A program made the position numbers and the translations under genes. Positions 2,943 through 23,038 of a stretch of DNA of 64,000 nucleotides are shown piece by piece; the stretch's first letter is position 1, and each line of letters starts with the position of its first letter. The notes beneath the pieces were generated by a model, which was given only the letters and a program-made list of their open reading frames with translations, was not told where the DNA came from and did no database searches. The stretch spans positions 153,404-217,403 of the forward strand of contig JAEYRB010000010.1 of assembly GCA_023409735.1 (NCBI GenBank). The letters run 5' to 3'. This stretch comes from Bacillota bacterium. GTDB taxonomy: Bacteria; Bacillota; Clostridia; Acetivibrionales; DTU013.

Positions 2943-2996
2943 AGGTAAGTTATTTATGTAAAGAGCAATTGAAGAAAGCGAAAAGGAGGCTTTGGC

Positions 2997-3287
2997 ATGG
3001 ACGAAGAAAGAGATGATATAGTTGTATTAGTTGATGAAAACGGTGAAGAGGTTGAATTTGAGCATATTGATACAATAGAAATGAATGGAAATGAGTATGT
3101 TGTTCTTGCTCCGCTTAGTGAAGATGAAGAAGAAGAGCTAGACGAGGAAGAAGTTATTATATTAAAGGTCGAGCATGGTGAAGATGGTGAGGATACCTTT
3201 ATTACCATTGAGGATGATGATGAGTTGGATGATGTCTTCGATGAGTTCCAGTCAAGGATGGAAGATCTATTCGAGCCTGAAGACTAA
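2997..3287 (+). CDS. DUF1292 (UPF0473) acidic protein
   Basis: IVVLVDENGEEVEFEHIDTIEMNGNEYVVLAP core plus acidic tail; usual partner of ireB/ruvX in Firmicutes. Confidence 0.8.
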   Translation: MDEERDDIVVLVDENGEEVEFEHIDTIEMNGNEYVVLAPLSEDEEEELDEEEVIILKVEHGEDGEDTFITIEDDDELDDVFDEFQSRMEDLFEPED

Positions 3288-4944: not shown

Positions 4945-5023
4945 GATCCTCTGTGTTTTCGAGGAAGCAGTCGATCCAGGTTGACAGTTAAAAGTAAATT
5001 AAAAAATTTTAGTAGTTATATAG

Positions 5024-5055
5024 GGAATCCGGTCTATAGCCGGATTCCTTTTTTT
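5024..5055 (+). terminator. intrinsic terminator
   Basis: GGAATCCGG-tctatag-CCGGATTCC followed by T7. Confidence 0.85.
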
Positions 5056-5300
5056 ATGGCTCTGTGTCAATAGTTAGGGTGGGGCTCTAGCAAAATAAAA
5101 TATTGATATATTTTTCTGCCAGATAATCTAGTAAATATTCTGGTTACTGCCAGTTTTATTTTATATGGATATCAAACAGAGGCTGAGCTGATACCGCGGC
5201 TGGGTTACGTCACAAAACAGGCTGTAGTATGTAAGGTCTTTTTCAAGCAGCTACAATACTTTTCTGCTAGTCTCTCAAGTATTATTAATTCAATTAGTAA

Positions 5301-7067
<1,767 letters not shown>

Positions 7068-7120
7068 TTATGTTTCTATTTTTCTTAAATTTATTGCCAA
7101 GCCCAAGGATCATGAATCAT

Positions 7121-7154
7121 CAAAAGACTTGCTTTATTTATTGTTCGGCAAGTC
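7121..7154 (-). terminator. probable terminator of the GOGAT-glnA-ANTAR operon
   Basis: On the minus strand GACTTGC-15 nt loop-GCAAGTC followed by TTTTG. Confidence 0.45.
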
Positions 7155-7222
7155 ATTCAAATACTTATAAGTTACAGATTTGCTTAAGTATCATCAATTG
7201 CACAACAAATCCATATTATACT

Positions 7223-7335
7223 CATAAGTATCTATAGCACTATGAATCTGTCATATGGATATAAGTTATCTACAGCACTATGATTCCATCATAAGCCATA
7301 AGTATCTATAGCATTATGAATCCGTCATATGTCAT
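7223..7335. repeat. ~37-39-bp degenerate tandem repeat x3 abutting the 3' end of the ANTAR gene
   Basis: CATAAGTATCTATAGCACTATGAATCTGTCATATGG / TATAAGTTATCTACAGCACTATGATTCCATCATAAGC / CATAAGTATCTATAGCATTATGAATCCGTCATATG. Confidence 0.8.
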
Positions 7336-7338
7336 AAT

Positions 7339-7926
7339 TCAGTTTTCATATGTTCTGATGATATTCTCTGCTATCTCTCGCTTTGTTAGCCGCATATCCA
7401 TAGCTTGTTTTTCAATGAATCTGTGTGCTTGATCCTCATTCATGTTCAGATACTTGATCAGCACCCATTTTGCCCTGTTCACTATGCGTATTTCATCCAT
7501 TTTTGCCATAAGTGTCTTGTTCTTTGCTTCGGCTGTTCTCAGTCTCCCGCGCATGGCAACAGCAAGCTTTACTGCGCTGTACATAATAGCTTTGCTTACG
7601 GGCTTTGCAACAGTAATTACCCCATAGTTCTCCACCTTATAGGAAACATCATTATACAGCTCACCTTTTACGAGGAGTATAACACCTGAAGGATTTGTAT
7701 GTACAACATCAAGGGCAAAATCAGCTCCGAATTCATCGCTGAGCGGCGCATTTATTATAACTATGTCATATTCTGCACAAACCAACTTACGCTTAGCTGA
7801 GCTGCAATCCTTAATGAGCTCAACTGGGCTGAAGGATGAGGGCGGCAGAAGCTCCAAAAGCTGCTCGAGTATTTTATTTGTACTTGATACTACAAGGACA
7901 CTGCTCATTGTTCTCTCGGCAAGCAT
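7339..7926 (-). CDS. ANTAR-domain RNA-binding regulator with an atypical (pseudo-)receiver domain
   Basis: C-terminal IVNRAKWVLIKYLNMNEDQAHRFIEKQAMDMRLTKREIAENII = ANTAR; N-terminal CheY-like fold with SS for the acidic pair and N (IVIINAPL) at the phospho-acceptor position. Confidence 0.85.
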   Translation of the reverse strand: MLAERTMSSVLVVSSTNKILEQLLELLPPSSFSPVELIKDCSSAKRKLVCAEYDIVIINAPLSDEFGADFALDVVHTNPSGVILLVKGELYNDVSYKVENYGVITVAKPVSKAIMYSAVKLAVAMRGRLRTAEAKNKTLMAKMDEIRIVNRAKWVLIKYLNMNEDQAHRFIEKQAMDMRLTKREIAENIIRTYEN

Positions 7927-7942
7927 AGTAACAGCCCCCCGA

Positions 7943-9160
7943 TCAAAGAGAAAGCATTACGTACGTATCGATAACGCGACGCGGCAAAATGCTTTGCACA
8001 AAGCTGCTTGTGCTCATCAGCCTTGAAGCTTCATCAAGACTCAATGGTAAAGTCTTTAAAGTATCAAGCATCACCTTGTCTGCCTTGAAAAGGTTCACAT
8101 CTGTAGATGGCGGAGGTGTTAGCTTATTTTTGATTCCGTCAAGTCCGGCATATAATATGGCGGTATATGCCAGATAGGGGTTAGCTGTGGCATCAGGAGA
8201 GCGAAGCTCGATTCTGGCATGCTGCCGGTCAGCCGCAGGAATACGTATCAGCTGTGAACGATTCTGAGGAGACCAGGTGATATATTTTGGTGCCTTGCAC
8301 TCTCCAAGCCTTTTGTAGGAAGCGTGAACGGGATTGAGGAGCATTGTTATATCTTGTATATGTTCAAGTATTCCTGCCATAAAAGCTTCAATGCAGTTTT
8401 CATTGTTGATGCTGTGGAGCGAAAGGTTTATATGCATTCCACTGCCGCTTTTACCTTCAAGGGGTTTTGGATCAAAGGAGGCGTGGAGCCCGTTTCGTGC
8501 AGCTATGGTTTTTACAACAGTTTTGAAGGTTATTGCGTTGTCTGCCGCAGACAGTATGTCGCTGTAGTGAAAATCTATTTCGTTCTGACCGGGACCTTCC
8601 TCATGGTGTGATGCCTCCGGCTTTATTCCCATATCTTCTAGAGTAAGGCATATTTCACGCCTTACGTTCTCACCTGCATCTTCAGGAGCAATATCCATAT
8701 ATCCGGCACTGTCAAACGGTATATTAGTGGGATGGCCGTTCTCATCATTTTTGAAAAGATAGAATTCAAATTCTGCTCCCACATAGCATATAATACCCAT
8801 TTCACTTGCAGCAGCTACTGCTTTTTTCAAAAGCATACGAGTATCAAGCTCAAAAGGTGTGCCGTCGGGATGCTTTATATCGCAGAACATACGAACAACG
8901 CGGCCCTGAGATGGACGCCATGGCAATAGCGACAGCGTTGACGGATCGGGAAACAGGAAAAGGTCTGATTTTACTTCATCTCCAAAACCTCTGACTGCAG
9001 AGGCATCGAAGGATATTCCGTGATCGAATGCACCATCTAGCTCGTCTGAAAGAATTGATATATTCTTTGGTACTCCGAAGATGTCGCAAAATGCAAGCTT
9101 TATAAACTTTACATCCTCTTCCTTAACATAATCCAGTACTTCTTTTTTTGTATAGTACAT
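7943..9160 (-). CDS. glnA: glutamine synthetase, type I, unusually short (405 aa)
   Basis: EFEFYLF, ASHHEEGPGQNEIDF, GSGMHINLS, NPVHASYKRL, WSPQNRSQLIRIP and IELRSPDATANPYLA motifs present; ends about 20 aa earlier than B. subtilis GlnA by my alignment. Confidence 0.9.
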   Translation of the reverse strand: MYYTKKEVLDYVKEEDVKFIKLAFCDIFGVPKNISILSDELDGAFDHGISFDASAVRGFGDEVKSDLFLFPDPSTLSLLPWRPSQGRVVRMFCDIKHPDGTPFELDTRMLLKKAVAAASEMGIICYVGAEFEFYLFKNDENGHPTNIPFDSAGYMDIAPEDAGENVRREICLTLEDMGIKPEASHHEEGPGQNEIDFHYSDILSAADNAITFKTVVKTIAARNGLHASFDPKPLEGKSGSGMHINLSLHSINNENCIEAFMAGILEHIQDITMLLNPVHASYKRLGECKAPKYITWSPQNRSQLIRIPAADRQHARIELRSPDATANPYLAYTAILYAGLDGIKNKLTPPPSTDVNLFKADKVMLDTLKTLPLSLDEASRLMSTSSFVQSILPRRVIDTYVMLSL

Positions 9161-9174
9161 CCGATTCCCTCCAA

Positions 9175-9894
9175 TCAGTTTTGAACATAGAGCTGCTTAT
9201 ATGGATTACTTGTGTTAGGTGTCAATGTATAAAAGTTTTTGTTAAAAATTTCATTTTTATCAGTATAAAACAATTCGGAAAATGTATCAATATATGCAGA
9301 AATTTCTTCCATATCGCATTGGCTTGATTGATTGACTGCTACCTGACGGGGAAACCTTGCAGAAAGCTTTTCTGCGCGTATGACTATTTTGCCGCCGTGC
9401 ATCCCTGTGCCGCAGAAATTACCAAGAATTTCTTCATCCTTAAAGCCTAGTCCTAAAACTATGATTAACCCTCCTGCCTGATATTCTCCAAGAAAGCTTC
9501 CGCATTTGCCGCCAATTACCATAACCGGTTTTTTATCTGCATATGCCTTCATATGGATGCCTGCACGATAGCCTACATCTCCCTTTATGAATATCTCGCC
9601 ACCCCTCATTGCATAGCCTGCTGCATCACCGCAGCTGCCATGGACAACGATTCTTCCTGAATTCATAGTATCGCCTGTGGCGTCCTGTGCGTTTCCGTTG
9701 ACAACTATTGTGGCACCATCCAGATATGCACCCAGGGCATTGCCGGGAACACCATTGATCATAAGCGTTCCACTGCTTCTGCCAGCCCCGATAAAACGCT
9801 GCCCAAGACAGCTGTTAATGGTGATTTCACCTTCGGTAGATACAATTTGTCTGTTTAAAAAATTGTATCCAATATTTTCACTGTTTAATATCAT
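9175..9894 (-). CDS. glutamate synthase GXGXG (GltB C-terminal beta-helix) domain protein
   Basis: Gly-rich repeats VVHGSCGDAAGYAMRGGEIFIKGDVGYRAGIHMK...VIGGKCGSFLGEYQAGG; start overlaps the stop of the upstream ORF. Confidence 0.8.
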   Translation of the reverse strand: MILNSENIGYNFLNRQIVSTEGEITINSCLGQRFIGAGRSSGTLMINGVPGNALGAYLDGATIVVNGNAQDATGDTMNSGRIVVHGSCGDAAGYAMRGGEIFIKGDVGYRAGIHMKAYADKKPVMVIGGKCGSFLGEYQAGGLIIVLGLGFKDEEILGNFCGTGMHGGKIVIRAEKLSARFPRQVAVNQSSQCDMEEISAYIDTFSELFYTDKNEIFNKNFYTLTPNTSNPYKQLYVQN

Positions 9895-11132
9895 GATTTT
9901 ACACCTCCCAGTTTTTCATCCCTGAATTTTCTTGAAAAAGCTGCCAGACCGGGCTGTTTGAAGATTAAGGCGCTATCTATGCTTGACAGCGGCGTACGTT
10001 CACGGATAAGTGAGGTGTATATTCCTGCCTTATTTACATCACCTATCATTATATACCCCTTTAGCAGATCGTTTTTGTAAAACAGCTTCTTAAGACTTTC
10101 TGAGCTGTGTTCTTCGTATTTTTCCCCGTCATAATTACCGGCAGTAATAATGTGCATTCCAAAAAAACCGATTGCATTCATGGGGATTGCTTTATTATAG
10201 ACCATGCTGCCACCGGCCATATTGATACCGGCCACATGGCCTCCGTAGTAAGCATTTGGAAGCAAAGCCAGGACACGATCAGTGTCTGAGGAAATATCAT
10301 GGCACTCAGTACAATCTCCTGCTGCAAAAATGTTTTCCAGGGTTGTTTCCATTTTGCTGTTTACGTTAATACCTTTATTTACTAAACCACCGGCGTCCTT
10401 AACAAGAGCTGTATTAGGGCGTACGCCCACTGCGGTGACCAATATGTCGAAGCTAAGTTCTTCTCCGCTTGTAAGGAGAGCGGCATTACCCCTGAACTCC
10501 TTAACGGAGGTGCCGAGCTTGAATTCTATACCATGTGTTTCAAGGTGTTTTTGGACCAGAGCTGCACCTTCACTGTCCAGTATGCTTGATAGAATTGATG
10601 GTGCAAGGTCAATTACTGTAACACTGTTTACCCGTTTAGTTATTCCTTCGGCGCATTTAAGGCCTATAAGCCCCCCGCCGATAATGAGAATCCTTTTGTC
10701 CTTACCAAGTACAGTATCCAGTGCGATTGCATTGTCAAGAGTCATAAAGCTGAAGTGGTTTGAAACTGTCTCCAAGCCCTTCATAGGAGGTACAAACGGA
10801 GAGGAGCCTGCTGCAACAAGAAGCTTATCATAAATCACGCTCTCTCCGCTTTCGAGAAGCACCTGACATGCTATTGTATCAATTTTCACAGCCTTTTTAC
10901 CAAACTGTGCTGTGCACTTATTATCAGAATAAAAGGAGTCCGGCCTGTATTTCATCCTTTGTTCGTCTGTTTTTCCCTGCAGCAAGTAAGAAATAAGCGG
11001 GCGCGAGTACATATGATATGGCTCATCGCTTATAATTGTGATACTGCCTTTATTGTCAATTTCACGGATTCCCTCGACACAGCCTGCAGCAGCAGTTGAA
11101 TTTCCTATTATAACATATCGCAATATACTCAC
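9891..11132 (-). CDS. FAD/NAD(P)-dependent pyridine nucleotide-disulfide oxidoreductase, probable electron-input subunit of the split GOGAT
   Basis: Two Rossmann motifs (VIIGNSTAAAG; ILIIGGGLIGLKCAE) and AAGDC; overlaps neighbouring ORFs by 4 nt on both sides. Confidence 0.8.
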   Translation of the reverse strand: MSILRYVIIGNSTAAAGCVEGIREIDNKGSITIISDEPYHMYSRPLISYLLQGKTDEQRMKYRPDSFYSDNKCTAQFGKKAVKIDTIACQVLLESGESVIYDKLLVAAGSSPFVPPMKGLETVSNHFSFMTLDNAIALDTVLGKDKRILIIGGGLIGLKCAEGITKRVNSVTVIDLAPSILSSILDSEGAALVQKHLETHGIEFKLGTSVKEFRGNAALLTSGEELSFDILVTAVGVRPNTALVKDAGGLVNKGINVNSKMETTLENIFAAGDCTECHDISSDTDRVLALLPNAYYGGHVAGINMAGGSMVYNKAIPMNAIGFFGMHIITAGNYDGEKYEEHSSESLKKLFYKNDLLKGYIMIGDVNKAGIYTSLIRERTPLSSIDSALIFKQPGLAAFSRKFRDEKLGGVKS

Positions 11133-11557
11133 CTCTCTTCATATACTATAGCTTGGTTTGGACATCCTTCAATACATTTAGGATTGCCTGAAGAATTTTC
11201 AATACAAAGCTCACATTTTTGCATAACTCCGTTATCGGCCGGCATAATTGCACCATATGGACAGGATAATATGCAAGTATAGCACTGTACACATTTATCC
11301 TTATTGATGCGCACAACCCCATTTTCTCTAGTTAGAGCGCCTGTTATGCAGTTCATCACACATAGTGGTTCATCACAATGACGGCAGGAAACTGCAAAGC
11401 ATATTTTCCCATCAGTCTCAACATGTATATTCGGTTGTATTTTTATATTTTTCAGTGCGGTAAACATATTATCCTTGCCTGAATTTGCAAATGCGCAGTA
11501 GTATTCGCATAAATGACAGCCAAGGCACCAATCTTCGTTAACATAAACTCGCTTCAT
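11129..11557 (-). CDS. 4Fe-4S dicluster ferredoxin-like protein
   Basis: CLGCHLCEYYC, CRHCDEPLCVMNC, CVQCYTCILSCP and CIEGCP motifs; GAGGTG 6 nt before ATG at 11557. Confidence 0.8.
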   Translation of the reverse strand: MKRVYVNEDWCLGCHLCEYYCAFANSGKDNMFTALKNIKIQPNIHVETDGKICFAVSCRHCDEPLCVMNCITGALTRENGVVRINKDKCVQCYTCILSCPYGAIMPADNGVMQKCELCIENSSGNPKCIEGCPNQAIVYEER

Positions 11558-11567
11558 AGAAAGCACC

Positions 11568-13073
11568 TCACTCCCCGGCATGTTTGATTCCAAGTATTTC
11601 GAGCTCCTTTATGCCAAGTCCTATACCGCGGAGCATCAAGCGGTTTCCTCTAAGAGCTTCTATGGAGTTAATGCCCATTGCGCCCATAAGCTCTTTAATT
11701 TCGTGATTCCATGCAGTAACAAGGTTAACAAGCCTATGATAGGCGATATCAGGATTTAATCTTTTGACAAGCTCTGGGCGCTGGGTCGCAATACCCCAGT
11801 TGCATTTTCCTGCCTGGCAGCTTCTGCACAGGTGACAGCCTATGGCGAGCAGAGCGGCAGTTGCTATATATACGGCGTCGGCTCCAAGTGCTATAGCCTT
11901 TACAACATCGGAGCTGCTGCGTATACTGCCACCGATTACAAGTGAGACATCGCCTCGGATACCTTCATCACGCAGCCTTTGATCTACGCTGGCAAGTGCA
12001 AGCTCCACAGGTATGCCTACATTATCTCTTATTCTTGTAGGAGCAGCTCCTGTGCCGCCTCTGAAGCCGTCTATAGCTATGATATCAGCGCCGCTTCTGG
12101 CTATGCCGCTTGCAATAGCAGCGATATTGTGAACAGCTGCTACCTTTACAATAACAGGCTTCTTATAGCTTGTGGCCTCTTTAAGGGAGTATACCAATTG
12201 TCTTAGATCCTCTATTGAATATATGTCATGATGAGGTGCAGGGGAGATGGCGTCCGAGCCCTCAGGTATCATTCTGGTCTTTGATATGTCGCCTACGATT
12301 TTTGAGCCGGGAAGGTGACCGCCTATGCCGGGTTTAGCACCCTGACCCATTTTTATCTCAATTGCTGCACCTGCTTCAAGATAGCCCTTATGAACTCCAA
12401 AACGTCCTGAGGCAACCTGCACTATTGTATTTGGCCCGTATTGATAGAAGTCCTCATGGAGTCCGCCCTCGCCAGTGTTATAGCAGGTACCGAGCTCACT
12501 TGCGGCAAGAGCAAGGCTTTTGTGGGCGTTATAGCTGATGGAGCCATAGGACATGGCAGAAAACATGATCGGCATTGGAAGCTCAAGCTGAGGGGACATT
12601 TTTGTTTTAATAGTCCCATCCTCGTTTCTTTCTATTTTATCGGGCTTTTTGCCAAGGAATACCTTTGTTTCCATGGGCTCTCGAAGCGGGTCTATAGGTG
12701 GATTTGTCACCTGTGATGCATTTATTAGTATTTTGTCCCAGTAAACAGGAAATTCCTTAGGGCAGCCCATTGAGGACAAAAGCACTCCTCCGCTGTCTGC
12801 CTGGCGGTATATCTCCTTTATAGACTGGTCGCTCCAGTTTGCATTTTCTCTGAAGCGGTGTTCTGAGGGCCTTATTTTAAGGGCCCTTGTGGGACACAAG
12901 GAAACACAGCGGTGACAGTTGACGCATTTTGCTTCGTCGCTGATCATAACACCAAGCTCTGAGTCAAAGCTGTGAACCTCATTTGCGCACTGCCTTTGGC
13001 AGACCTTGCATTGTATGCACCTGGAACTGTCCCGTACTACTTCGTAATCAGGATATATAAATTGTATCGGCAT
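11568..13073 (-). CDS. glutamate synthase FMN-binding domain protein (GltB domain-2-like) with N-terminal 2x[4Fe-4S]
   Basis: CIQCKVCQRQC, CVNCHRCVSLCP, then NTGEGG, GQGAKPGIGGHLPG, SPAPHHDIYSIEDL and DGFRGGTGAAP. Confidence 0.9.
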   Translation of the reverse strand: MPIQFIYPDYEVVRDSSRCIQCKVCQRQCANEVHSFDSELGVMISDEAKCVNCHRCVSLCPTRALKIRPSEHRFRENANWSDQSIKEIYRQADSGGVLLSSMGCPKEFPVYWDKILINASQVTNPPIDPLREPMETKVFLGKKPDKIERNEDGTIKTKMSPQLELPMPIMFSAMSYGSISYNAHKSLALAASELGTCYNTGEGGLHEDFYQYGPNTIVQVASGRFGVHKGYLEAGAAIEIKMGQGAKPGIGGHLPGSKIVGDISKTRMIPEGSDAISPAPHHDIYSIEDLRQLVYSLKEATSYKKPVIVKVAAVHNIAAIASGIARSGADIIAIDGFRGGTGAAPTRIRDNVGIPVELALASVDQRLRDEGIRGDVSLVIGGSIRSSSDVVKAIALGADAVYIATAALLAIGCHLCRSCQAGKCNWGIATQRPELVKRLNPDIAYHRLVNLVTAWNHEIKELMGAMGINSIEALRGNRLMLRGIGLGIKELEILGIKHAGE

Positions 13074-14167
13074 TATTTTGACCCCCTATCCAAAGTAACA
13101 ATTACAGGCTCTCCGCCCCTTGGATACCATATCCTTGAGGGGGACGGCTCCATCATTCTAATGGCGCATTCCTCACTGGCGAAGTAAACTATATCGCCCT
13201 TCTCAGCTGCCACCATCGACCTTAGCTTAAGCCTGTCATTGAGTGCCATAAGTCCACCCTCAAAGCCCAACAATATTGAGAAAGGTCCCGTAATGAGCAA
13301 GCTGCTGAAGGTGTTCCTAAGGAAGGTAAGACGCTCCTCTTCCTTTTTGCTCTTTGTTTCTATAGTGCTCCAGAAGGGAGCTGCTATAACGCTGGCAGCC
13401 TCTTCAAGAGTTAAGCCCTGTCGTCTGAGCAGGTAGTCGAATATATATGTAATTACCTCGGTATCTGTAAGCAGAGTACACTTATAACCAAACATCTCGA
13501 TATATCTCCTGTTTGCATCATAGGAGGATATCTCACCATTATGCACTATGGAATAATCCAGCATTGCAAAGGGATGCGCCCCGCCCCACCAGCCGGGAGT
13601 GTTGGTCGGATAGCGGCCATGAGCTGTCCAGCTGTAGCCTTCATATTCATCCAGACGGTAGAATTCGCCCACATCCTCGGGGAAGCCCACTGCTTTGAAT
13701 ACGCCCATGTTCTTGCCACTTGAAAACACATATGAGCCTTTGTATTCCTTGTTGATCCTCAGTACCGCTCTGGCCATGTACTCCTTTTCATCAAGCTGGC
13801 TGTCTTTAAGCTTGTTGTTGTTGGGAGCTACAAAATAGCGCCATATTAATGGCTCGTTAACTATTTTTGGCGATTTGCGTATTGGAATTTTTGAAAGATT
13901 AATAACCTCAAACATCTTATCGAGATATCTCTCACATTCATCTCTAGCTGCTATGCTGTCGTAAAATATATGGAGAGCATAGAAGTCCTTGTACTGCGGA
14001 TATATGCCATAGCCTGCAAAACCGCCGCCTAAACCATTGGACCTTTCATGCATAGTCGTCATGGACTTCACAATTGTTTCACCGCATATATTATTACCGC
14101 TTCTTGAGATTACACCTGCTATGGCGCAGCCTGACGGAATACGGATATCGCCTTCTCTTGGCAGCAT
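13073..14167 (-). CDS. class-II glutamine amidotransferase (GltB domain-1-like)
   Basis: PSGCAIAGV nucleophile context, HGRYPTNTPG, HNGEISSY; GAAGGGA 9 nt before ATG at 14167 (track ORF starts at TTG 14176). Confidence 0.85.
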   Translation of the reverse strand: MLPREGDIRIPSGCAIAGVISRSGNNICGETIVKSMTTMHERSNGLGGGFAGYGIYPQYKDFYALHIFYDSIAARDECERYLDKMFEVINLSKIPIRKSPKIVNEPLIWRYFVAPNNNKLKDSQLDEKEYMARAVLRINKEYKGSYVFSSGKNMGVFKAVGFPEDVGEFYRLDEYEGYSWTAHGRYPTNTPGWWGGAHPFAMLDYSIVHNGEISSYDANRRYIEMFGYKCTLLTDTEVITYIFDYLLRRQGLTLEEAASVIAAPFWSTIETKSKKEEERLTFLRNTFSSLLITGPFSILLGFEGGLMALNDRLKLRSMVAAEKGDIVYFASEECAIRMMEPSPSRIWYPRGGEPVIVTLDRGSK

Positions 14168-14186
14168 ATTCTTCAATCCCTTCTGT

Positions 14187-14239
14187 AAAAAATAAAAGCG
14201 CTCACAAAGAGATATGTGTATCTCTTAATGAACGCCTTT
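14187..14239 (-). promoter_or_regulatory. leader hairpin plus U-tract in the 5' UTR of the GOGAT-glnA operon (candidate attenuator)
   Basis: Minus-strand RNA: AAAG(G)CG..[AAGAGATA-caca-TATCTCTT]..CGCTTT then TATTTTTT, lying between the promoter and the RBS. Confidence 0.45.
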
Positions 14240-14250
14240 GTTCTTTTAAC

Positions 14251-14279
14251 AGTATATGCCTGTGCATATGATTTGTCAA
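14251..14279 (-). promoter_or_regulatory. sigma-A-type promoter of the GOGAT-glnA-ANTAR operon
   Basis: Minus strand TTGACA (14279-14274), 17-nt spacer, TATACT (14256-14251). Confidence 0.6.
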
Positions 14280-14403
14280 TAATAAATGAATGATTTAATA
14301 ACAAAACTTGCAGTAATGGCTTAAAAGAATGTTGAAATACAAACATTTGACTAACTAATAACAAGAATATGAAAGAAAATATTTAAAACTTGCATTTTTA
14401 CTA

Positions 14404-14432
14404 TTGACAATGCATAAACATGATAGTAGAAT
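14404..14432 (+). promoter_or_regulatory. sigma-A-type promoter of glnN-amt
   Basis: TTGACA 14404-14409, exactly 17 nt, TAGAAT 14427-14432. Confidence 0.65.
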
Positions 14433-14442
14433 GATTGCATTG

Positions 14443-14497
14443 AAACGGCAAAGACGCCGCAGGATTTAACTGTGGTGTCTTTGCCGTTTTTTGTTTT
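14443..14497 (+). terminator. intrinsic terminator inside the glnN 5' leader (attenuator)
   Basis: AAACGGCAAAGAC(GCCGCAG-gatttaa-CTGTGGT)GTCTTTGCCGTTT followed by TTTGTTTT, located between the promoter and the GGGGTGAG RBS of glnN. Confidence 0.8.
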
Positions 14498-14519
14498 AAT
14501 TTTTTGAAGGGGTGAGATT

Positions 14520-16616
14520 ATGAGTAATGTACCTGAAATGTTCGGATGTATGGTATTCAATGATGCAGCAATGAAACAGAGACTTCCAAAAGAAACATAC
14601 AAGGCGATGCAAAATGCCATAAAGAATGGCCAGCGCCTTAATATCGACATAGCAAATGTAGTAGCAAATGCAATGAAGGATTGGGCAGCCGAAAAGGGTG
14701 CAACACATTTTACGCATTGGTTTCAGCCAATGACCGGTATTACAGCGGAAAAGCATGATAGCTTTATAGCGCCGGTGGAAGGCGGTAAGGTTATAATGGA
14801 ATTTTCAGGAAAGGAGCTTGTACACGGCGAGCCCGATGCGTCGAGTTTCCCCTCAGGTGGACTCAGAGCTACATTTGAAGCCAGAGGCTACACTGCGTGG
14901 GATCCTACATCATACGCTTTTATAAAGGATAAGACACTGTGTATACCTACGGCCTTCTGCTCCTATGACGGAAAGGCGCTGGATAAGAAAACGCCGCTTC
15001 TCAGGTCGATGGAGGCCATTAACAGGCAGGCACTTCGTGTCCTTAAACTATTCGGGAATGAGGATGTGACTTCTGTTAACACCACGATAGGGCCTGAGCA
15101 GGAGTATTTCATTATCGACAAGGGTGTGTATGAAAGACGTAAGGACTTGATATTTGCAGGTCGCACACTTTTCGGAGCAAAACCGCCTAAAGGACAGGAG
15201 CTGGAGGACCACTATTTCGGAGCTATTAAGCCCAGAATATCAGCATTTATGCAGGAGCTTGACGAAGAGCTGTGGAGACTTGGTGTGCTTGCGAAAACGA
15301 AGCATAACGAAGTAGCCCCGGCACAGCACGAACTGGCGCCTATTTTTGAGACCGTAAACATAGCAACAGATCATAATCAATTAACTATGGAGACTATGAA
15401 AAAGGTAGCTCAGAAGCATGGAATGGTATGCCTGCTGCATGAAAAACCCTTTGCAGGTGTTAATGGAAGCGGTAAGCATAATAACTGGTCGATCAGCACA
15501 AATACCGGTGTGAATCTTCTTGAACCGGGTGATACACCCCATGAGAACGCGCAGTTCCTGTTGTTTTTATGCGCTGTTATTAAGGCTGTTGATGATTATC
15601 AGGATCTCCTGAGAATATCAGTTGCAACAGCGGGTAATGACCACAGGCTTGGTGCAAATGAAGCTCCTCCTGCAGTTGTATCAATATTTTTGGGAAGTGA
15701 GCTAAGTGAAATACTCGACTCTATCGAAAAGGGTACAGCCTATGATGTAAAGGAAAAGACGCAGTTGAAGGTTGGCGTCCATGTCCTTCCGCGATTCCCC
15801 AGAGATATGACAGACCGCAACAGAACCTCACCATTTGCCTTTACAGGCAACAAATTTGAATTCCGCATGCCCGGTTCATCTCTGTCTGTGGCGGGAGTTA
15901 ACGTAGTGCTTAATACAGCAGTTGCTGAGGAACTGAGACAATTTGCCGACAGACTTGAGGTTTCACAGAGTTTGAATGATGACCTGAATAAACTTATAAA
16001 GGATGTTGTAAGCCGGCATAAGCGGATATTGTTCAACGGAAACGGTTATGATGAGGAATGGATAAAGGAAGCAACTGAAAAACGTGGGCTTCTCAATCTT
16101 AAGACTACACCTGACTGTATGCCTTATTTCCTGCATGAAAAGAACATAGCGCTGTTTACTTCCCACAGAGTATTTTCAGAGGCAGAAATGAAGTCTCGGT
16201 ATGAAATACTCCTGGACAATTATTGTAAGACGATCAGAATAGAAGCTCTTACAATGCTTCAAATGTCAAAGCAGGATATCCTGCCGGCAATTTCGGCATA
16301 TGTTAAGGAGCTAAGCTTGACAGCTGCCGCTAAGAAGCAGTGCGTTACAACGGCGGATTGCACATTTGAAGAAAAAACCGTTGAGAAGTTATCCGGATTA
16401 TGCGCTGCAATTTATAGGAATATGAGCAGCCTTGATGCTATTATGCTTGATGTACAAAACAACAAGGATACTACGGATCAAGCTGTATTTATAAAGGATA
16501 ATGTAATACCTATGATGAATGAGCTGCGCGCTACAGTTGATGAGGCAGAAACACTATGTTCAGCGAATTGGTGGCCGATGCCCACATATGGAGAGCTATT
16601 GTTCAGCGTAAAATAG
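14520..16616 (+). CDS. glnN: glutamine synthetase, type III
   Basis: 698 aa; N-terminus [20 protein letters not shown] and core [31 protein letters not shown] and [14 protein letters not shown] match the GS-III class. Confidence 0.9.
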
Positions 16617-16727
16617 TCAGGTTAATTTTATAATTGTTTAATTAATGCGTTGCCTGAAGGGCTACGGCAAAAAGACGAGAGGGGCTCGAGGTACCCGAAA
16701 CTTTTATTATTCAAGGGAGGCGAATGT

Positions 16728-18455
16728 ATGGATAAATATCTAGAACTATTCTCTGATGTCAATACCATGTGGGTGTTAATAGCGTCAGCACTTGTATTCT
16801 TTATGCAGGCTGGGTTTGCTATGGTTGAAACCGGATTTACTCGTGCAAAAAATGCCGGAAACATTATAATGAAGAATATGATGGACTTCTGTATCGGGGC
16901 ACCGCTTTATTGGATCGTGGGCTTCGGTATAATGTTTGGCACACAAAGTGCAATATTTGGCGGAATCGATATTTTAACACAGGGCGACTATAGCGCAGTG
17001 TTGCCGGAGGGTGTCAGCTTTTTCAGCTATTTTATATTCCAGACGGTTTTTTGCGGAACAGCTGCAACAATAGTTTCAGGAGCAATGGCTGAGAGAACTA
17101 AATTCAGTGCCTACTGCATATATAGTGCTATGATCAGTCTTATAATATATCCTGTATCAGGTCACTGGATATGGGGCGGCGGCTGGCTGGCTCAGTTGGG
17201 CTTCCATGATTTTGCTGGTTCAACAGCGGTGCATCTTGTTGGTGGTATATGTGCGCTTGTAGGCGCTTCTATACTTGGACCTCGTATAGGCAAATATGAT
17301 AAAAATGGTAAACCTCAGGCAATTCCGGGACACAGCCTTACCTTGGGTGCACTTGGTGTATTTATACTATGGTTTTGCTGGTTTGGCTTCAATGGCGGTT
17401 CAACTGTATCAATGTCAAATGGCGGAGCTGAGCTGGCCGGAAAGGTTTTCTTCAACACGAATCTCGCAGCAGCAACCGCAACTGTAGCAGTTATGATAAT
17501 TACATGGATAAGATATAGAAAGCCCGACGTGTCAATGACTCTTAACGGTTCCTTGGCGGGACTAGTAGCAATTACAGCCGGATGTGACGTAGTAAACCCT
17601 TGGGCAGCAGCAGTCATAGGAATAATTGCAGGAACTGCAGTTGTATTCGGAATCGAATTTATTGATAAGGTAATGAAGATCGACGACCCAGTCGGAGCCG
17701 TGGGCGTACACTTTATGAATGGTGCACTTGGAACGATTCTTACAGGTGTATTCGCTTCAAATGAAGCTCTCGAAGACATGGGAATGAGCCGTCTGCACTT
17801 TCTTGGAGTTGAGGTTCTGGGCGTGCTTGTAACAACCTTGTGGGCGGGTGTAGCAATAAGTATAGTCTTCTTCATAATAAAGAAAACTGTTGGACTTCGT
17901 GCCGATGCCCAGGCAGAAATCGATGGACTTGATATTCATGAGCACGGCCTTGTGAATGCATACGCCGACTTCATGCCATCAATTCCTGCAGTGAATGTGG
18001 ATGTTGCACTGCCCGGTATACCTAAGGGCTCGATACCGGTTGATGAGGCAGTACCGGTTCAGCTTAAGACCTTCTCTGGAACGGTTACCGGCTCTGATGT
18101 AAAAATGAGCAAGGTAGAGATTATATTTAAGCAGGAGCGCTTTGAAGCTTTTAAGGAAGCAATGCTGGGAATAGGCATAACAGGAATGACTGTTACTCAT
18201 GTGCTTGGCTGCGGTGTACAGAAGGGAAAGCCGGAATATTACCGAGGTATTATTCAGCAGATAGAGCTTCTGCCCAAGGTTCAGGTTGAGATAGTCGTTT
18301 GCAAGGTGCCTGTGCGAACAGTAATTGAAACAGCTAAGAGAGTATTGTACACAGGACATATAGGTGATGGAAAAATATTTGTATATGATGTTGAAAATGT
18401 TGTAAAGGTTCGCACCGGTGAAGAAGGCTATGATGCTCTGCAGGATGTTGAATAA
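16728..18455 (+). CDS. amt: ammonium transporter (Amt) fused in frame to a C-terminal P-II (GlnB/GlnK) domain
   Basis: Amt core (FMQAGFAMVETG, DFAGSTAVHLVGG, GWFGFNGGS, GVHFMNGALG), ~50-aa linker, then MSKVEIIFK...GITGMTVTHVLGCGVQKG...IGDGKIFVYDVENVVKVRTGEEG from 18105; AGGGAGG before ATG 16728. Confidence 0.9.
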   Translation: MDKYLELFSDVNTMWVLIASALVFFMQAGFAMVETGFTRAKNAGNIIMKNMMDFCIGAPLYWIVGFGIMFGTQSAIFGGIDILTQGDYSAVLPEGVSFFSYFIFQTVFCGTAATIVSGAMAERTKFSAYCIYSAMISLIIYPVSGHWIWGGGWLAQLGFHDFAGSTAVHLVGGICALVGASILGPRIGKYDKNGKPQAIPGHSLTLGALGVFILWFCWFGFNGGSTVSMSNGGAELAGKVFFNTNLAAATATVAVMIITWIRYRKPDVSMTLNGSLAGLVAITAGCDVVNPWAAAVIGIIAGTAVVFGIEFIDKVMKIDDPVGAVGVHFMNGALGTILTGVFASNEALEDMGMSRLHFLGVEVLGVLVTTLWAGVAISIVFFIIKKTVGLRADAQAEIDGLDIHEHGLVNAYADFMPSIPAVNVDVALPGIPKGSIPVDEAVPVQLKTFSGTVTGSDVKMSKVEIIFKQERFEAFKEAMLGIGITGMTVTHVLGCGVQKGKPEYYRGIIQQIELLPKVQVEIVVCKVPVRTVIETAKRVLYTGHIGDGKIFVYDVENVVKVRTGEEGYDALQDVE

Positions 18456-18794
18456 GACATTAAAATGACTATGATACACTGCATGGATCGTCAGTACGGC
18501 ATGTCCCATTCATACAGGCAGCCTGCAGAAATGTAATGCATGTAAGATATAGCTTAAAGACATAAGCCTTATCCGCAAGCAGTGAGCAGGTATGTAATGT
18601 ACTCCATGTTAGAGTTAGCCATGTATTGTCTATTAATATGCAAGTGAATTATCTATCAATCAAAATTGAGTTGTTAGTAAAGCTGCGTTACTTACACCAC
18701 GAGCATTAGACAGTGGGTAATGCTTCACACATGTGTGCGGTAGCGAAATACTCATGATTCATTACTAGAAGTAACTGATATAGTAAATCAAGCC

Positions 18795-18839
18795 CCGGAG
18801 GTGTAGAATAAATGCCTCCGGCGGCAGCATTTTTGGAGG
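18795..18839 (+). promoter_or_regulatory. asnB leader hairpin with possible anti-Shine-Dalgarno alternative
   Basis: CCGGAGG (18795-18801), 13-nt loop, CCTCCGG (18815-18821), then CATTTTT and the SD GGAGG (18835-18839); CCTCC could pair with either GGAGG. Confidence 0.35.
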
Positions 18840-18848
18840 TAAATTGAT

Positions 18849-20429
18849 ATGTGTTGTATTATGGCTATAGACAGAAGCAATATTGGAATGGAAAGATTTA
18901 TACAATGCTTCAACCGTACTGTTTCCAGGGGACCTGACATGACAAGGGTGATCGAACTGGATAACGGGGGGATTATGGGCTTTCACCGTCTGGCTATTAT
19001 GGGCCTTGACGAAAGCGGAATGCAGCCGTTTACACTTAATAACAATTATATAGTATGTAATGGTGAAATGTACGGCTTTCGCAAAATGAAGCAACAGCTA
19101 TCTGAAAAATACTGCTTCGTGAGTAATTCGGACTGCGAAATACTGCTGCCAATGTATGAGAGCTATGGCTATGATATGTTCAGAAGGCTTGATGCGGAAT
19201 TTGCCATGATTATTTATGACAGCAGGAAAAAATCCTTTGTAGCGGCTAGAGATCCCATAGGTATAAGACCTTTATTTTATGGTGAAGGTCATGAGGGTGA
19301 GATGCTGTTCGCCTCTGAAGCTAAGAATCTGGTAGGCTTGACAGACAAGATAATGCCTTTTCCTCCGGGTTATTATTATGCAGAAGGTAAATTCACTTGC
19401 TACTGCAACATAGCTCAAAGGCAGGAGTATGTTACTAATGACTTGGAGACTGCATGCAGGAATATACATGATAAGCTGGTTAAAGGGATAGAAAAAAGAC
19501 TTGATGCTGATGCCCCTGTGGGCTTTCTTCTGAGTGGCGGCCTTGACAGCTCACTGGTATGCTCGGTGGCTGCAAAAATTCTAGGAAAGCCTATACGTAC
19601 CTTTGCCATAGGGATGAGCGGGGATGCGATAGACCTGAAATACGCTCGCCAGGTAGCTGAATACATAGGCAGCGAGCATAGAGAAATAATTATTGACAGA
19701 CATAAGGTGCTTACATCCATAGCCGAGGTCATAAGCGTGCTTGGCACTTACGATATTACAACCATAAGGGCAAGTATTGGCATGTACCTGATCTGTAAGG
19801 CAATACATGAAACCACAGATATACGCGTCCTGTTGACAGGCGAGATATCTGACGAAATATTCGGGTATAAATATACTGATTTTGCGCCTTCAGCTGAGGA
19901 ATTCCAGTTGGAAGCGGAAAAACGCCTTCGGGAGCTGCACATGTATGATGTACTAAGAGCTGACAGGTGTATCTCATCTAATTCTATTGAGGCAAGGGTA
20001 CCCTTCGGTGATTTGGATTTCGTAAAATATGTTATGAGCATTCCGGCTGAAATGAAGCTTAATACCTATGGTAAGGGCAAATATCTGCTCAGACATGCAT
20101 TTGAAGGAGACTATCTTCCGGATAACATACTCTACCGTGAAAAAGCTGCCTTCAGTGATGCGGTGGGCCACTCCATGGTAGATTATATAAAGGAATATGC
20201 AGAAGAATATTACAGTGATAATGAATATGAGGAGAAACGAATGAAGTATTCGTTCGCAACGCCATTTACAAAGGAATCACTGCTGTATAGGGAAGTGTTT
20301 GAAAAGTACTATCCAGCACAGGCGGAGATGGTCAAGGATTTCTGGATGCCTAACAAGACATGGGAAGGCTGCAATGTGGATGATCCCTCTGCAAGAGTGT
20401 TGAAGAATTACGGCGGCAGCGGCGAGTAA
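18849..20429 (+). CDS. asnB: asparagine synthase (glutamine-hydrolysing), AsnB type
   Basis: N-terminal MC nucleophile, FLLSGGLDSS PP-loop, typical AsnB C-terminal half. Confidence 0.9.
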   Translation: MCCIMAIDRSNIGMERFIQCFNRTVSRGPDMTRVIELDNGGIMGFHRLAIMGLDESGMQPFTLNNNYIVCNGEMYGFRKMKQQLSEKYCFVSNSDCEILLPMYESYGYDMFRRLDAEFAMIIYDSRKKSFVAARDPIGIRPLFYGEGHEGEMLFASEAKNLVGLTDKIMPFPPGYYYAEGKFTCYCNIAQRQEYVTNDLETACRNIHDKLVKGIEKRLDADAPVGFLLSGGLDSSLVCSVAAKILGKPIRTFAIGMSGDAIDLKYARQVAEYIGSEHREIIIDRHKVLTSIAEVISVLGTYDITTIRASIGMYLICKAIHETTDIRVLLTGEISDEIFGYKYTDFAPSAEEFQLEAEKRLRELHMYDVLRADRCISSNSIEARVPFGDLDFVKYVMSIPAEMKLNTYGKGKYLLRHAFEGDYLPDNILYREKAAFSDAVGHSMVDYIKEYAEEYYSDNEYEEKRMKYSFATPFTKESLLYREVFEKYYPAQAEMVKDFWMPNKTWEGCNVDDPSARVLKNYGGSGE

Positions 20430-20720
20430 CCTCGATGCTAAAGAATTACAACGGCAGTAGGGGCCTCTAGACTTCAGTGCCGAAGAATATAGAGGCAACA
20501 GGGGCATGTAGATCACGGTGCTGAAGGAATGCTGCGACCGAGTGGTCTATGCCCCCAACCCAATGCCGAAGAATTGCAGCGGGTAGCGGCGAGTAGACTT
20601 CAGTGCCGAAGAATTACGGCAGCAGCGGTGAGTAACCTCGATGCTAAAGAATTACAACGGCAGCGTCGAGTAACATGTGGCGAAGTAGCGCAGCTAGCCG
20701 CTGCAAATCAACTGGCCCCT
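20398..20720. repeat. ~40-bp degenerate tandem array (~8 units) starting inside the last codons of asnB
   Basis: TG(C/T)(C/T)GAAGAATTACGGCGGCAGCGGCGAGTAA-like units at ~20398, 20436, 20478, 20519, 20564, 20604, 20642 and 20678; several retain a TAA or TAG. Confidence 0.8.
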
Positions 20721-20769
20721 CAACGCAGCTAGCCGTTACTGCCAGTTCCTCAGCGTCGCAACAAAGCAG

Positions 20770-21696
20770 CTAAGCATTACCGCTGATCTCCTCAAGTGCT
20801 GTAATAAGCTTATACAATAGCTGATTGACAGGTGTTGCAACTCCATATTGTTGTCCCAGTTCTATTACCGTACCTGCAAATATATCAACCTCTGTTTTCC
20901 TGCCTGCTTCTACGTCTTGCAGCATAGAGGTCTTGCCCAGAGGAGAAATTGCTTCGAGAACAGCTGCATATTGCGCCAAATCGTCTTCTGACAGCCTTAC
21001 CCCTACTCTTTCCGCAATGGCGATGACCTCCCGTGATGCGGCGAACATGAGCTCACGAGCAGCGCCGGGTTTTGTAAATGGACCATAGGGTGCCCGCAAA
21101 ACTGCTGACACCTGGTTAATTCCTACATTCATCATAAATTTCCACCATTGCTCCCGGATTATATCCTCGGGTATGGTATAGGGAATATGCGCTTTATCAA
21201 AGAAGTCCCGAATAGCCTGTACCTTTAAAGAGGCTGCTGAATCCTCCCGGTCGCCAAATACGATTTTTCCAATTTTACTATACTGAATATTAGTCCCAGA
21301 CCGCACTGAATCTGTTGCTACTACAAAGGAATGGAGCATTTTATCCATGCCATATGTATTGCCGATTCGCTCCTCGCTGGAAATACCGTTTAAAAGTGAA
21401 AGTATTATAGTATCAGAACCGATAAGAGTCTTTATATCCGAAATGGCTTGCTCTAAATGGTGCTGCTTGACTGCAACAATAACTAGATCGGCAGTTTCTT
21501 TTATTGACCCCGGATACACATAATCAAAGGAGGTCAATTTCTCGTTAATTTTTATGCCTGACTCGGTATATCTTTTAGCACGCTGGCTATCCACTATTAC
21601 CTTAAGCTGACCGGGACAGTACTCCTGTATCCTTCCAGCATAAGCTCCGCCTACTGCTCCGAGTCCGATCAGATATACACGCTGTATTTGGCTCAT
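20770..21696 (-). CDS. panE: 2-dehydropantoate 2-reductase (ketopantoate reductase family)
   Basis: VYLIGLGAVGGAYAGRI Rossmann N-terminus, ~308 aa, ApbA/PanE-like C-terminal domain (KTSMLQDVEAGRKTEVD). Confidence 0.8.
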   Translation of the reverse strand: MSQIQRVYLIGLGAVGGAYAGRIQEYCPGQLKVIVDSQRAKRYTESGIKINEKLTSFDYVYPGSIKETADLVIVAVKQHHLEQAISDIKTLIGSDTIILSLLNGISSEERIGNTYGMDKMLHSFVVATDSVRSGTNIQYSKIGKIVFGDREDSAASLKVQAIRDFFDKAHIPYTIPEDIIREQWWKFMMNVGINQVSAVLRAPYGPFTKPGAARELMFAASREVIAIAERVGVRLSEDDLAQYAAVLEAISPLGKTSMLQDVEAGRKTEVDIFAGTVIELGQQYGVATPVNQLLYKLITALEEISGNA

Positions 21697-21983
21697 TGAT
21701 ATGATCCTCCTAAAATGCTTGCTGTAGTTTTATATTGAATATTTATTATAAAGTATTATGACATTTTTAGCTTTGAAATTCAATTGCTTATAAATCTGCA
21801 GGCGCGGCAATAGTTAATATAATAAGCCGAAGCCGCCAAATAAGTGAAAGAAGTATAACTGGCAGTAAAACTATATTTAATAGCAACAGTAAAATAAATG
21901 ATTTAATAACCGCAATGGGGGTTATTATAAGAGCATTCAAGCTGTCGTGCGATATTTTCGGTAATGCGAAACGCACATAACAG

Positions 21984-22018
21984 ATTATATCATGAAAACT
22001 ATGTTTTCATGATATAAT
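21984..22018. promoter_or_regulatory. perfect 16-3-16 palindrome (candidate operator) containing an extended -10 box on each strand
   Basis: ATTATATCATGAAAAC-tat-GTTTTCATGATATAAT; each arm reads TGATATAAT outward, toward the CDF gene (+) and panE (-). Confidence 0.6.
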
Positions 22019-22030
22019 TATGGCGAACAA

Positions 22031-22066
22031 TATAAGTAAAGTAAATCATATAAGTAAAGTAAATCA
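22031..22066. repeat. exact 18-bp tandem duplication in the CDF upstream region
   Basis: TATAAGTAAAGTAAATCA x2; GCTATTAATAAA also occurs twice at 22083 and 22101. Confidence 0.8.
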
Positions 22067-22138
22067 TATTAATAAAGAAAATGCTATTAATAAAACAAAC
22101 GCTATTAATAAATAAATGATAAGGATGCGTCTAAAGAT

Positions 22139-23038
22139 ATGAGTCATTCATATGATGTAAACAAAGCAAAAGCTGCAAATGCTGAGGAAAATATATTAAT
22201 TGCCTTTTTCCTCAACTTTGCATTTATTATTATAGAGGTAATCGGCGGACTTTTGACCAACAGCATTGCCATTTTATCCGACGCGATCCATGATTTCGGA
22301 GACTGTACGGCAATCGGTTTTGCATATGCTATGGAAAAGCTATCAAGCAAAAATGCTGATGATTTCTATACCTATGGATATAAGCGCTTTTCGCTGCTCT
22401 CAGCTTTGGTTACAAGCCTGATTCTCGTCGTCGGCGGTGCTGTGGTTGTTTATTCGTCTATAAAGAGGCTTTTTTCACCTCAGGAGGTCAGCGGTCTTGG
22501 TATGCTGATTATTGCAGTAATTGGAGTTGTCGTTAACGGCCTTGCAGTTTTGAAAACCTCTCATGGACATAAGCTGAATGAGAAGGTTATCAGCCTTCAC
22601 ATGCTCGAGGATGTATTAGGCTGGGCTGTGGTGCTTGTGGGAAGCATTTTCATATGGCTATTTGGACTTCATATTGTTGATCCGATACTTTCAATAGGCA
22701 TTAGCTTTTTTATACTGATCCAGGCGCTAAGAAATATGAGACGAGCATTTCAGACGCTTCTGGAAAGGGCTCCGGTACACTTTGATATGGCTGCATATAA
22801 AGGTGAGCTTTTGAAAATCCAAAATGTAAGTGATGTCCACCATGTACATGTTTGGGAGTTGGACGACGAAAACCTTTTGGCTACGCTTCATGTTGTAGTG
22901 CCGGATAATCTTATGACTGATGATATAAAGAGGCTCAAACAATCAATCAAGGAAGAAAGCGCTAAATATAACATAGGACATCTAACGATTCAGGTCGATT
23001 TCGCGTCTGAAGATGACAATTGTAAATCGTGCGTATAG
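22139..23038 (+). CDS. cation diffusion facilitator family metal exporter (CzcD/ZitB-like)
   Basis: Six TM segments with SDAIHDFGD and HMLEDVLGW metal-site motifs, plus a C-terminal cytoplasmic domain. Confidence 0.85.
   Translation: MSHSYDVNKAKAANAEENILIAFFLNFAFIIIEVIGGLLTNSIAILSDAIHDFGDCTAIGFAYAMEKLSSKNADDFYTYGYKRFSLLSALVTSLILVVGGAVVVYSSIKRLFSPQEVSGLGMLIIAVIGVVVNGLAVLKTSHGHKLNEKVISLHMLEDVLGWAVVLVGSIFIWLFGLHIVDPILSIGISFFILIQALRNMRRAFQTLLERAPVHFDMAAYKGELLKIQNVSDVHHVHVWELDDENLLATLHVVVPDNLMTDDIKRLKQSIKEESAKYNIGHLTIQVDFASEDDNCKSCV

Follow-up and report, generated by a model that had tools for sequence, protein, structure and literature searches.

How should a gene be read in which an ammonium channel and the PII protein that regulates such channels lie in one uninterrupted frame? 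The association of AmtB with GlnK is the textbook case of a PII protein that plugs a channel on demand, and this is thought to be the ancestral function of PII proteins. The question is raised by a stretch of 64,000 nucleotides (the window; contig JAEYRB010000010.1, positions 153,404 to 217,403 of the forward strand, assembly GCA_023409735.1) from a gut-type bacterium of the class Clostridia, in which an ammonium transporter (Amt) domain runs on into a PII domain. An earlier note on this DNA, made from its letters, had proposed that the two are encoded as one polypeptide, and this was borne out: the open reading frame (ORF) extends from the ATG at 16728 to the TAA at 18453–18455 on the + strand, is free of stops, encodes 575 amino acids (aa) and contains both Pfam domains.

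16728..18455, + strand: Amt-PII fusion gene, 575 codons plus stop.
16714..16720, + strand: Shine–Dalgarno (SD) sequence AGGGAGG of the fusion gene, read directly, 7 nt 5' of ATG 16728.

A longer, TTG-initiated version of the frame begins at 16650, but the ATG at 16728 is preferred because it has the SD sequence 7 nt upstream and because homologues start at the equivalent position. Pfam places Ammonium_transp at residues 14–409 (E 5e-123) and P-II at residues 460–565 (E 3e-22); the PF00909 score of the protein is 411 bits against a cut-off of 23.2, the PF00543 score of the fused PII domain is 84 bits against a cut-off of 25, and the NCBIfam model TIGR00836 ('amt') scores 422.7 bits against a cut-off of 343.3. 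When the last 116 residues were scanned alone P-II was matched over its whole model (1e-23), and the PII domain is complete. A two-domain Amt-PII model is absent from NCBIfam and the public names of the relatives are only 'ammonium transporter' or 'ammonia channel'.

A lost stop or frameshift, introduced in sequencing or assembly and joining what are really amtB and glnK, would give the same picture, and the evidence on this point is one-sided. The exact protein is present on seven contigs from at least four independent assemblies, and the 1728-nt gene has 0 differences from the window in ENA ERZ28597484, ENA ERZ27269263, Logan SRR13358427 and Logan SRR13401007, four contigs from four different samples and assemblies; the gene neighbours on both sides are the same in three of these and the fourth, a short contig, retains the downstream asnB. 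In a search of 5.8 billion clustered proteins at least 8000 clusters matched the fusion (8000 of the 8000 candidates scored), and both Pfam domains are present in all of the best 120 cluster matches (568–633 aa, 76–81% identity). A library of 50%-identity representatives was also searched, and there about 20 of the 150 best clusters proved to be full-length fusions (36–64% identity). The architecture is kept at 36–81% identity in thousands of sequences, complete genomes (CP048000, CP162391) included. Because it is conserved across many families of Clostridia no stop or frameshift has been lost in this gene; the artefact is hardly credible, and the fusion as a single polypeptide is confirmed at the level of the gene.

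How widespread the arrangement is was estimated from 300 genomes spread evenly over the Clostridia, the class of the window, each at least 90% complete. An Amt was found at E <= 1e-70 in 120 of them, and about 75 of the 300 carry an intact full-length fusion (counted from the table of matches as stop-free and spanning the query from residues ~5–14 to ~572–575). In this sample of the class the fused form outnumbers any other form of this Amt. When the best 80 loci in named genomes were inspected, the two domains shared a stop-free frame in 37, among them loci on the complete chromosomes of Anaerocolumna sedimenticola (CP048000) and Ruminococcus sp. JE7B6 (CP162391), with other named carriers in Lachnospiraceae, Oscillospiraceae, Monoglobus, Butyricicoccus, Lawsonibacter, Mitsuokella, Allobaculum, Desulfitobacterium and three Treponema. 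The fusion therefore reaches beyond Clostridia, to Negativicutes, Erysipelotrichaceae, Desulfitobacterium and Treponema; in the other phyla among those best 80 loci amt and glnK are separate genes. Full-text literature searches returned no paper describing an Amt-PII fusion, although an earlier mention is possible, and PII fusions are not mentioned in the passages searched of two papers on sensor-type Amt proteins (PMC11152129, PMC5764959). The fusion is visible to anyone listing domain architectures, and its parts and logic are known from AmtB–GlnK; what is new here is how common it is, that several genomes have it as their sole PII and that Tyr51 has been lost throughout the fused group, together with a non-conserved internal Met, a conserved linker motif and a pattern of one PII lineage with many Amt lineages.

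18105..18452, + strand: PII (GlnK-type) domain, residues 460–575 (Pfam P-II, PDB matches, AlphaFold2 fold).
18213..18269, + strand: T-loop, PII positions 37–55, equal in length to that of Escherichia coli GlnB; Arg47 codon 18243–18245, position-51 Gln codon 18255–18257.

The best PDB matches of the PII domain are 4R25/4RX6 (E ~3e-31) and E. coli GlnB (1PIL, 2.5e-28), with residues 1–108 of which it aligns without gaps. An AlphaFold2 (AF2) monomer model of the whole protein, built from an alignment of 44 sequences (mean predicted local distance difference test score, pLDDT, 85; predicted template modelling score 0.73), folds it as beta-alpha-beta-beta-alpha-beta at a pLDDT of ~85 with a softer T-loop (strand 460–468, helix 469–481, strands 488–494 and 515–524, helix 529–540, strand 549–555). 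Genetic linkage to amt, the mark of the GlnK subgroup of PII proteins, is given here by the shared ORF. In 46 fused PII domains G35, G37, Q39, G41, G48, G87-D88-G89-K90 and F92 are invariant, R47 and R103 are each present in 45 and K58 in 44, and position 101 is Lys rather than Arg both here and in 40 of the 46. As judged from these aligned residues the binding sites for nucleotide and 2-oxoglutarate are intact. Arg47, residue 506 of the fusion protein, is likewise kept; it corresponds to the T-loop residue entering the AmtB pore in the E. coli complex (2NUU, 2NS1).

At position 51, where E. coli GlnB has the uridylylated Tyr, the earlier note had read Gln. The gapless alignment with 1PIL (..EYYRGIIQQ.., the Tyr of YRG being Tyr46) supports that reading, but not as a peculiarity of this protein: Tyr51 occurs in none of the 46 fused domains, all of which have V, M, I, L, F or Q there, and in 52 of 66 free PII proteins. 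A GlnD uridylyltransferase domain was not found in this 99.9%-complete genome, and PII modification has not been reported in Firmicutes (Merrick 2015, PMC4285133). The Tyr51 uridylylation/adenylylation site is treated here as a proteobacterial and actinobacterial feature, not one of the PII family as a whole.

The earlier note also stressed the start of the domain, at a Met codon (18105, Met460) with no SD. The absence stands, as no purine-rich SD was found in the 25 nt 5' of this codon (AACGGTTACCGGCTCTGATGTAAAA), but the Met is incidental: its position is Met in 16 of the 46 fused domains versus 60 of the 66 free PIIs, and Ile, Leu or Phe in most fusions; among the 116 close homologues that were scored, 89 have Ile or Leu there. 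A separate PII product from Met460 is thus unlikely on sequence grounds, and a separately initiated PII is not a conserved feature because the codon lacks an SD and is itself not conserved.

16767..17954, + strand: Amt channel domain, residues 14–409, 11 long helices (Pfam 5e-123; AF2 pLDDT mostly >90).
17898..17972, + strand: cytoplasmic C-terminal region of the Amt domain (R391..GLDIHEHGLVNAYADF415), aligning with the end of E. coli AmtB (..GLDVNSHGENAY).
17973..18104, + strand: flexible tether, residues 416–459, rich in Val, Pro, Ser and Gly (AF2 pLDDT <50 at residues 413–455).
18045..18062, + strand: linker motif E-A-V-P-V-Q, residues 440–445 (V444 at least 90% conserved in the fusion alignment).

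The channel half too has every pore-defining residue. In the alignment to E. coli AmtB (1XQE) F104/F108 correspond to F103/F107, W149 to W148, D161 to D160, the twin His residues H169 and H328 to H168 and H318, F221 to F215 and S225 to S219; most of the pore residues are invariant across 44 fusions, as are G400, L401, D402 and H406 of the C-terminal region (GLDxxEHG..AY.DF). Between the two halves the linker is predicted to be a disordered tether joining two confidently modelled domains, its extent (residues ~416–459) being close to the ~50 aa given in the earlier note. In other fusions it measures 32–68 aa and is in frame every time. Its PII-proximal part is conserved across unrelated Amt lineages, as [E/K/Q]-A-[V/I]-P-V followed after ~15 residues by ..DVK-x-TK, such that DEAVPVQL..SDVKMSKVE here resembles NQAVPVEV..SDVKMTKID on an Amt only 35% identical to this one; the xVPV motif was present in 31 of 47 fusions, unrelated Amt lineages among them. 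Outside the motif the linker varies in both sequence and length.

An exposed linker with a conserved short motif could be a recognition site, and with Met460 present in this gene it might be argued that the polypeptide is a precursor, or the gene two overlapping genes, from which a free GlnK-like PII is released by linker proteolysis or made from the internal start. We consider this quite improbable: Met460 has no SD and is replaced in most fusions, the linker is otherwise variable, and the apparent free copies do not survive inspection. A search with the PII domain alone did return many 'free' PIIs of 116–201 aa that are 76–87% identical to the fused domain. Natural fission as the origin of these near-identical proteins was rejected, as all three of those sampled on long contigs were artefacts (one a frameshift-ridden long-read contig, one a scaffold N-gap inside the linker and one a fused ORF called only at its end). 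An entry that public sources call a 'P-II family nitrogen regulator', ~80% identical to the fused domain, can thus be an artefact, and counts of free-PII genes in metagenome-assembled genomes of Clostridia may be inflated.

We think it rather probable, by analogy with the known complexes, that the product is a self-gated ammonium channel, closing when 2-oxoglutarate is low and regulated without covalent modification. Three copies would form the usual Amt trimer in the membrane, as in 2NUU, 2NS1 and Bacillus subtilis AmtB–GlnK, and the three C-terminal PII domains the usual PII trimer below it, each on a flexible tether of ~45 residues; as each of the two families is trimeric, joining them 1:1 agrees with the 3:3 stoichiometry of the known complex. 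The PII trimer would be the sensor, responding to cellular 2-oxoglutarate, ATP and ADP. With ample nitrogen (2-oxoglutarate low, ADP bound) the T-loops would extend, Arg47 would enter the cytoplasmic pore exit and uptake would stop; when nitrogen is scarce (Mg-ATP and 2-oxoglutarate bound) the T-loops would fold back and the pore would open, the PII remaining tethered. Because Tyr51 and GlnD are both absent there would be no uridylylation, and ligand binding would be the only switch. The tether would set a 1:1 ratio and a high local concentration of PII and would stop other targets from titrating the regulator; at 32–68 residues it should be long enough for the PII trimer to dock under the Amt trimer or to swing away, and it is reasonable to suppose that PII is permanently next to the pore. 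The setting is assimilatory: the 99.9%-complete genome has no Amt besides the fusion, the gene lies between the genes for type III glutamine synthetase (GS-III) and AsnB and opposite those for GS type I (GS-I) and glutamate synthase (GOGAT), and the pairing of glnN with amt-PII recurs elsewhere.

Several points weigh against self-gating. The AF2 model is a monomer and says nothing on docking; a plug that is permanently tethered could in principle leave the channel mostly closed; post-translational cleavage may occur; and the model gives the AVPV linker motif no role. Moreover the solved Amt domains closest to this one are those of Ks-Amt5 (6EU6, 3e-90) and Sd-Amt1 (8QJ3, 9e-71), which are non-transporting sensors, ahead of E. 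coli AmtB (7e-56), and the published N1/N2 signature of ammonium receptors (QX6EX15NX2D[FT]X54-60TX2[ST], PMC11152129) is matched by residues 27–117 and by all 120 close homologues.

These last two observations favour another explanation, compatible with pore gating, in which the protein is a transceptor or membrane signalling platform: Amt would mainly sense external ammonium and the tethered PII would transduce the signal. As the only PII of the cell it would report nitrogen status by binding or letting go of cytoplasmic partners at the membrane, for which the candidates include a GlnR/TnrA-type factor, glutamine synthetase and the ANTAR-domain regulator described below. Its case is strengthened by the nearest 50%-identity representatives other than PII fusions, most of which are Amt modules inside proteins of 700–2800 aa, by the position of the fused PII in the same clade as chain 4R25, taken to be B. 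subtilis GlnK, a membrane anchor of TnrA by way of AmtB, and by the complement of PII proteins in the carrier genomes. This genome gave two P-II hits, namely the fused domain and a weak 39-bit hit in a 226-aa tandem PII-like protein, so that the fused domain is its only canonical PII, and of five other fusion genomes, from five families, four gave no P-II hit at all besides the fused domain. Because the fused PII is the sole canonical one, any PII output would start at the membrane. Some relatives, it should be said, have ordinary pairs of amt and glnK in addition to the fusion.

On the other side of the account, an Amt that is the only one in its genome and stands in an assimilation operon is needed for uptake, and the partner proteins are so far only candidates. 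The N1/N2 signature is shared with proven transporters such as plant AMT1 (PMC11152129), and 14 of the 46 fused Amts, from other Amt lineages, do not have it. As a hallmark of the fusion it was rejected, being present in 32 of the 46 fused Amts yet also in 12 of 57 free Amts. On this evidence the transceptor is unlikely, although clearly less so than a precursor, and the self-gated channel remains the reading we prefer.

The 226-aa tandem PII-like protein is encoded on a separate contig (C28:73701-76985) by an ORF (1483–2163, − strand) that overlaps the end of a gene for a DUF1538 membrane protein (ORF 2147–3271, − strand). The two make a pair of transporter and PII-like protein.

Where the fusion came from was approached with trees of 112 PII and 103 Amt domains from the fetched loci, each labelled fused or free by continuity of the frame; it should be noted that the loci were chosen by similarity to this protein, that the trees are from 'quick' searches and that the PII alignment has 114 columns. 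In the PII tree the 46 fused domains are not split: all fall on the same side of one branch, in a clade with 99% support in the Shimodaira–Hasegawa-like approximate likelihood-ratio test and a long stem of 0.98. The only free members of this clade are two tandem PIIs of one relative and, once added, PDB chain 4R25 (which we take to be B. subtilis GlnK); its sister group is made up of free GlnKs of Clostridia, and it is marked by L16, T26, K67, P69, A77, L81, Y82, K101 and a C-terminal ..ALQD extension. The Amt tree gives a different picture, with fused Amts in at least five well-separated clades interspersed with free Amts of many phyla and starred branches requiring six state changes.

Two simple histories were rejected. 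A single ancient fusion of one Amt lineage is contradicted by the Amt tree and by the approximately unbiased test (delta log-likelihood 1229, p 6e-41, for groups that were named after the tree had been seen), and independent fusions from local glnK genes are contradicted by the grouping of the fused PIIs in one clade apart from the neighbouring free GlnKs. The simplest reading of the trees is that a cassette of linker motif plus PII originated once and was then transferred among Amt paralogues. A wider account would join this to the signalling alternative: a portable cassette with a single origin in the B. subtilis-type GlnK lineage would have been grafted by recombination onto at least five unrelated Amts and would have replaced all free PII in many gut Clostridia, making PII signalling wholly membrane-bound, with the protein acting as a transceptor for both ammonium and 2-oxoglutarate and the conserved AVPV motif as the docking point of a partner. 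We regard this joint account as possible but hold it only tentatively.

Tandem arrays are found in some relatives. One (G015, C13:40000-47000) has two different fusions side by side, of 631 and 684 aa, the larger having a longer linker (~66 aa) and an Amt of another lineage, and another (G001, C1:819500-826500) has glnK, a fusion, glnK and amt consecutively; such arrays would allow recombination of the cassette among Amt paralogues. The Treponema copies (Treponema berlinense and two metagenome-assembled Treponema sp.) are nested at two places in Clostridial Amt clades. Because they nest in this way, and because glnN is attached directly upstream in two of the loci, the glnN and amt-PII pair of Treponema looks like a lateral acquisition from gut Clostridia.

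The neighbourhood of the gene in the window is as follows.

14404..14432, + strand: promoter-like site TTGACA-17-TAGAAT of the probable glnN/amt-PII transcription unit (consensus match only, 11/12).
14443..14489, + strand: leader terminator, hairpin then U-run, 5' of glnN (20-bp stem, -38.4 kcal/mol, z = -7.7 versus shuffles).
14520..16616, + strand: glnN, type III glutamine synthetase, directly upstream of the fusion gene (Pfam GSIII_N, Gln-synt_C, Gln-synt_C-ter).
18849..20429, + strand: asnB, glutamine-dependent asparagine synthetase, downstream (Pfam Asn_synthase, GATase_7).
9175..14176, − strand: glutamate synthase as five ORFs (GATase_2, Glu_synthase with Fer4, Fer4 protein, Pyr_redox_2, GXGXG), then GS type I.
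7339..7926, − strand: ANTAR-domain RNA-binding regulator (Pfam ANTAR 4.6e-16), in the divergent GS-I/GOGAT arm.

The opposite strand thus carries a split glutamate synthase, GS type I, the ANTAR-domain protein and CTP synthase, and the GS-I and GS-III genes are ~5 kb or less apart. Of 37 fused loci, 13 have a glnN homologue no more than 4 kb away, mostly directly upstream of the fusion. The 111-nt spacer between glnN and the fusion gene has no stable fold (z +1.45), and from the sequence the fusion gene is probably co-transcribed with glnN, under antitermination control at the leader terminator. The ANTAR-domain protein, the only regulator in the 13-kb nitrogen cluster, is a candidate regulator of that terminator. 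A small hairpin (GGC-AAAGAC-GCC), part of which coincides with the 5' arm of the terminator, resembles ANTAR sites in its A1/G4 hexaloop, but when the glnN leader was inspected by eye for a dual-hexaloop site no convincing second hexaloop hairpin was seen. An Rfam scan of window positions 5000–23000 gave no match at E up to 0.1. The 393 nt between the fusion gene and asnB (18456–18848, + strand) contain no ORF of at least 60 aa on the + strand, no Rfam match and no terminator-like site, and the first 145 nt of this spacer fold no better than shuffles.

In a large block of gut and rumen Clostridia the channel and its regulator are usually one polypeptide and this is often the only PII of the cell, and regulation there must operate without covalent modification; if so, PII signalling in these abundant anaerobes would be confined to the membrane. 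For the experimenter the fusion is a natural 1:1 complex suited to cryo-electron microscopy and electrophysiology of the gating cycle, and a ready-made design for self-regulating transporters. For annotation, fusions are named only 'ammonium transporter', and fragmented assemblies yield spurious 'P-II family nitrogen regulator, partial' entries.

Compared with AmtB–GlnK of E. coli (2NUU, 2NS1) the fusion is made of the same two families, which form trimers, has conserved pore residues, T-loop length, Arg47, Q39, K58 and GDGKIF ATP loop, and would be expected to follow the same logic, PII plugging the cytoplasmic pore exit at low 2-oxoglutarate. In E. coli, however, the genes are separate and in the order glnK-amtB, binding is reversible and GlnD uridylylates Tyr51, whereas here one chain carries Amt first and PII second, Tyr51 is missing and no GlnD was found, and identity is ~40% for PII and ~35–40% for Amt. 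AmtB(NrgA)–GlnK(NrgB) of B. subtilis is nearer: its GlnK, to which 4R25/4RX6 are assigned, is the closest solved PII (E ~3e-31). Chain 4R25 belongs to the clade of the 46 fused domains (99% support), shares the clade markers C36, K67, P69, A77 and L81 and likewise lacks Tyr at position 51. The gene order is also amt then glnK, and we take B. subtilis GlnK to be largely membrane-bound via AmtB and not covalently modified. It differs in that there are two proteins, in a T-loop unlike the fused type (no LPK58, for example) and in the extra role of its GlnK in binding TnrA, for which no counterpart was identified for the fusion.

Built-in C-terminal autoregulation is known from plant AMT1 and fungal Mep2 (5AEX etc.), in which a short tail is switched by phosphorylation. 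There too the pore regulator is in the transporter chain at its cytoplasmic face, but the fusion has a complete metabolite-sensing PII domain instead of a short tail. Ks-Amt5 (6EU6, with a histidine kinase) and Sd-Amt1 (8QJ3/8QPF, with a diguanylate cyclase) resemble the fusion in having an Amt with a C-terminally fused cytoplasmic module (Pflueger et al. 2018, 2024; PMC5764959, PMC11152129) and differ in having an enzyme-type transducer, a helical or HAMP linker and no transport. Such ammonium receptors bind ammonium without translocating it and drive an enzymatic transducer, kinase or cyclase, whereas the module fused here is a PII, the channel's own regulator, carried on a disordered linker by what is the genome's only Amt.

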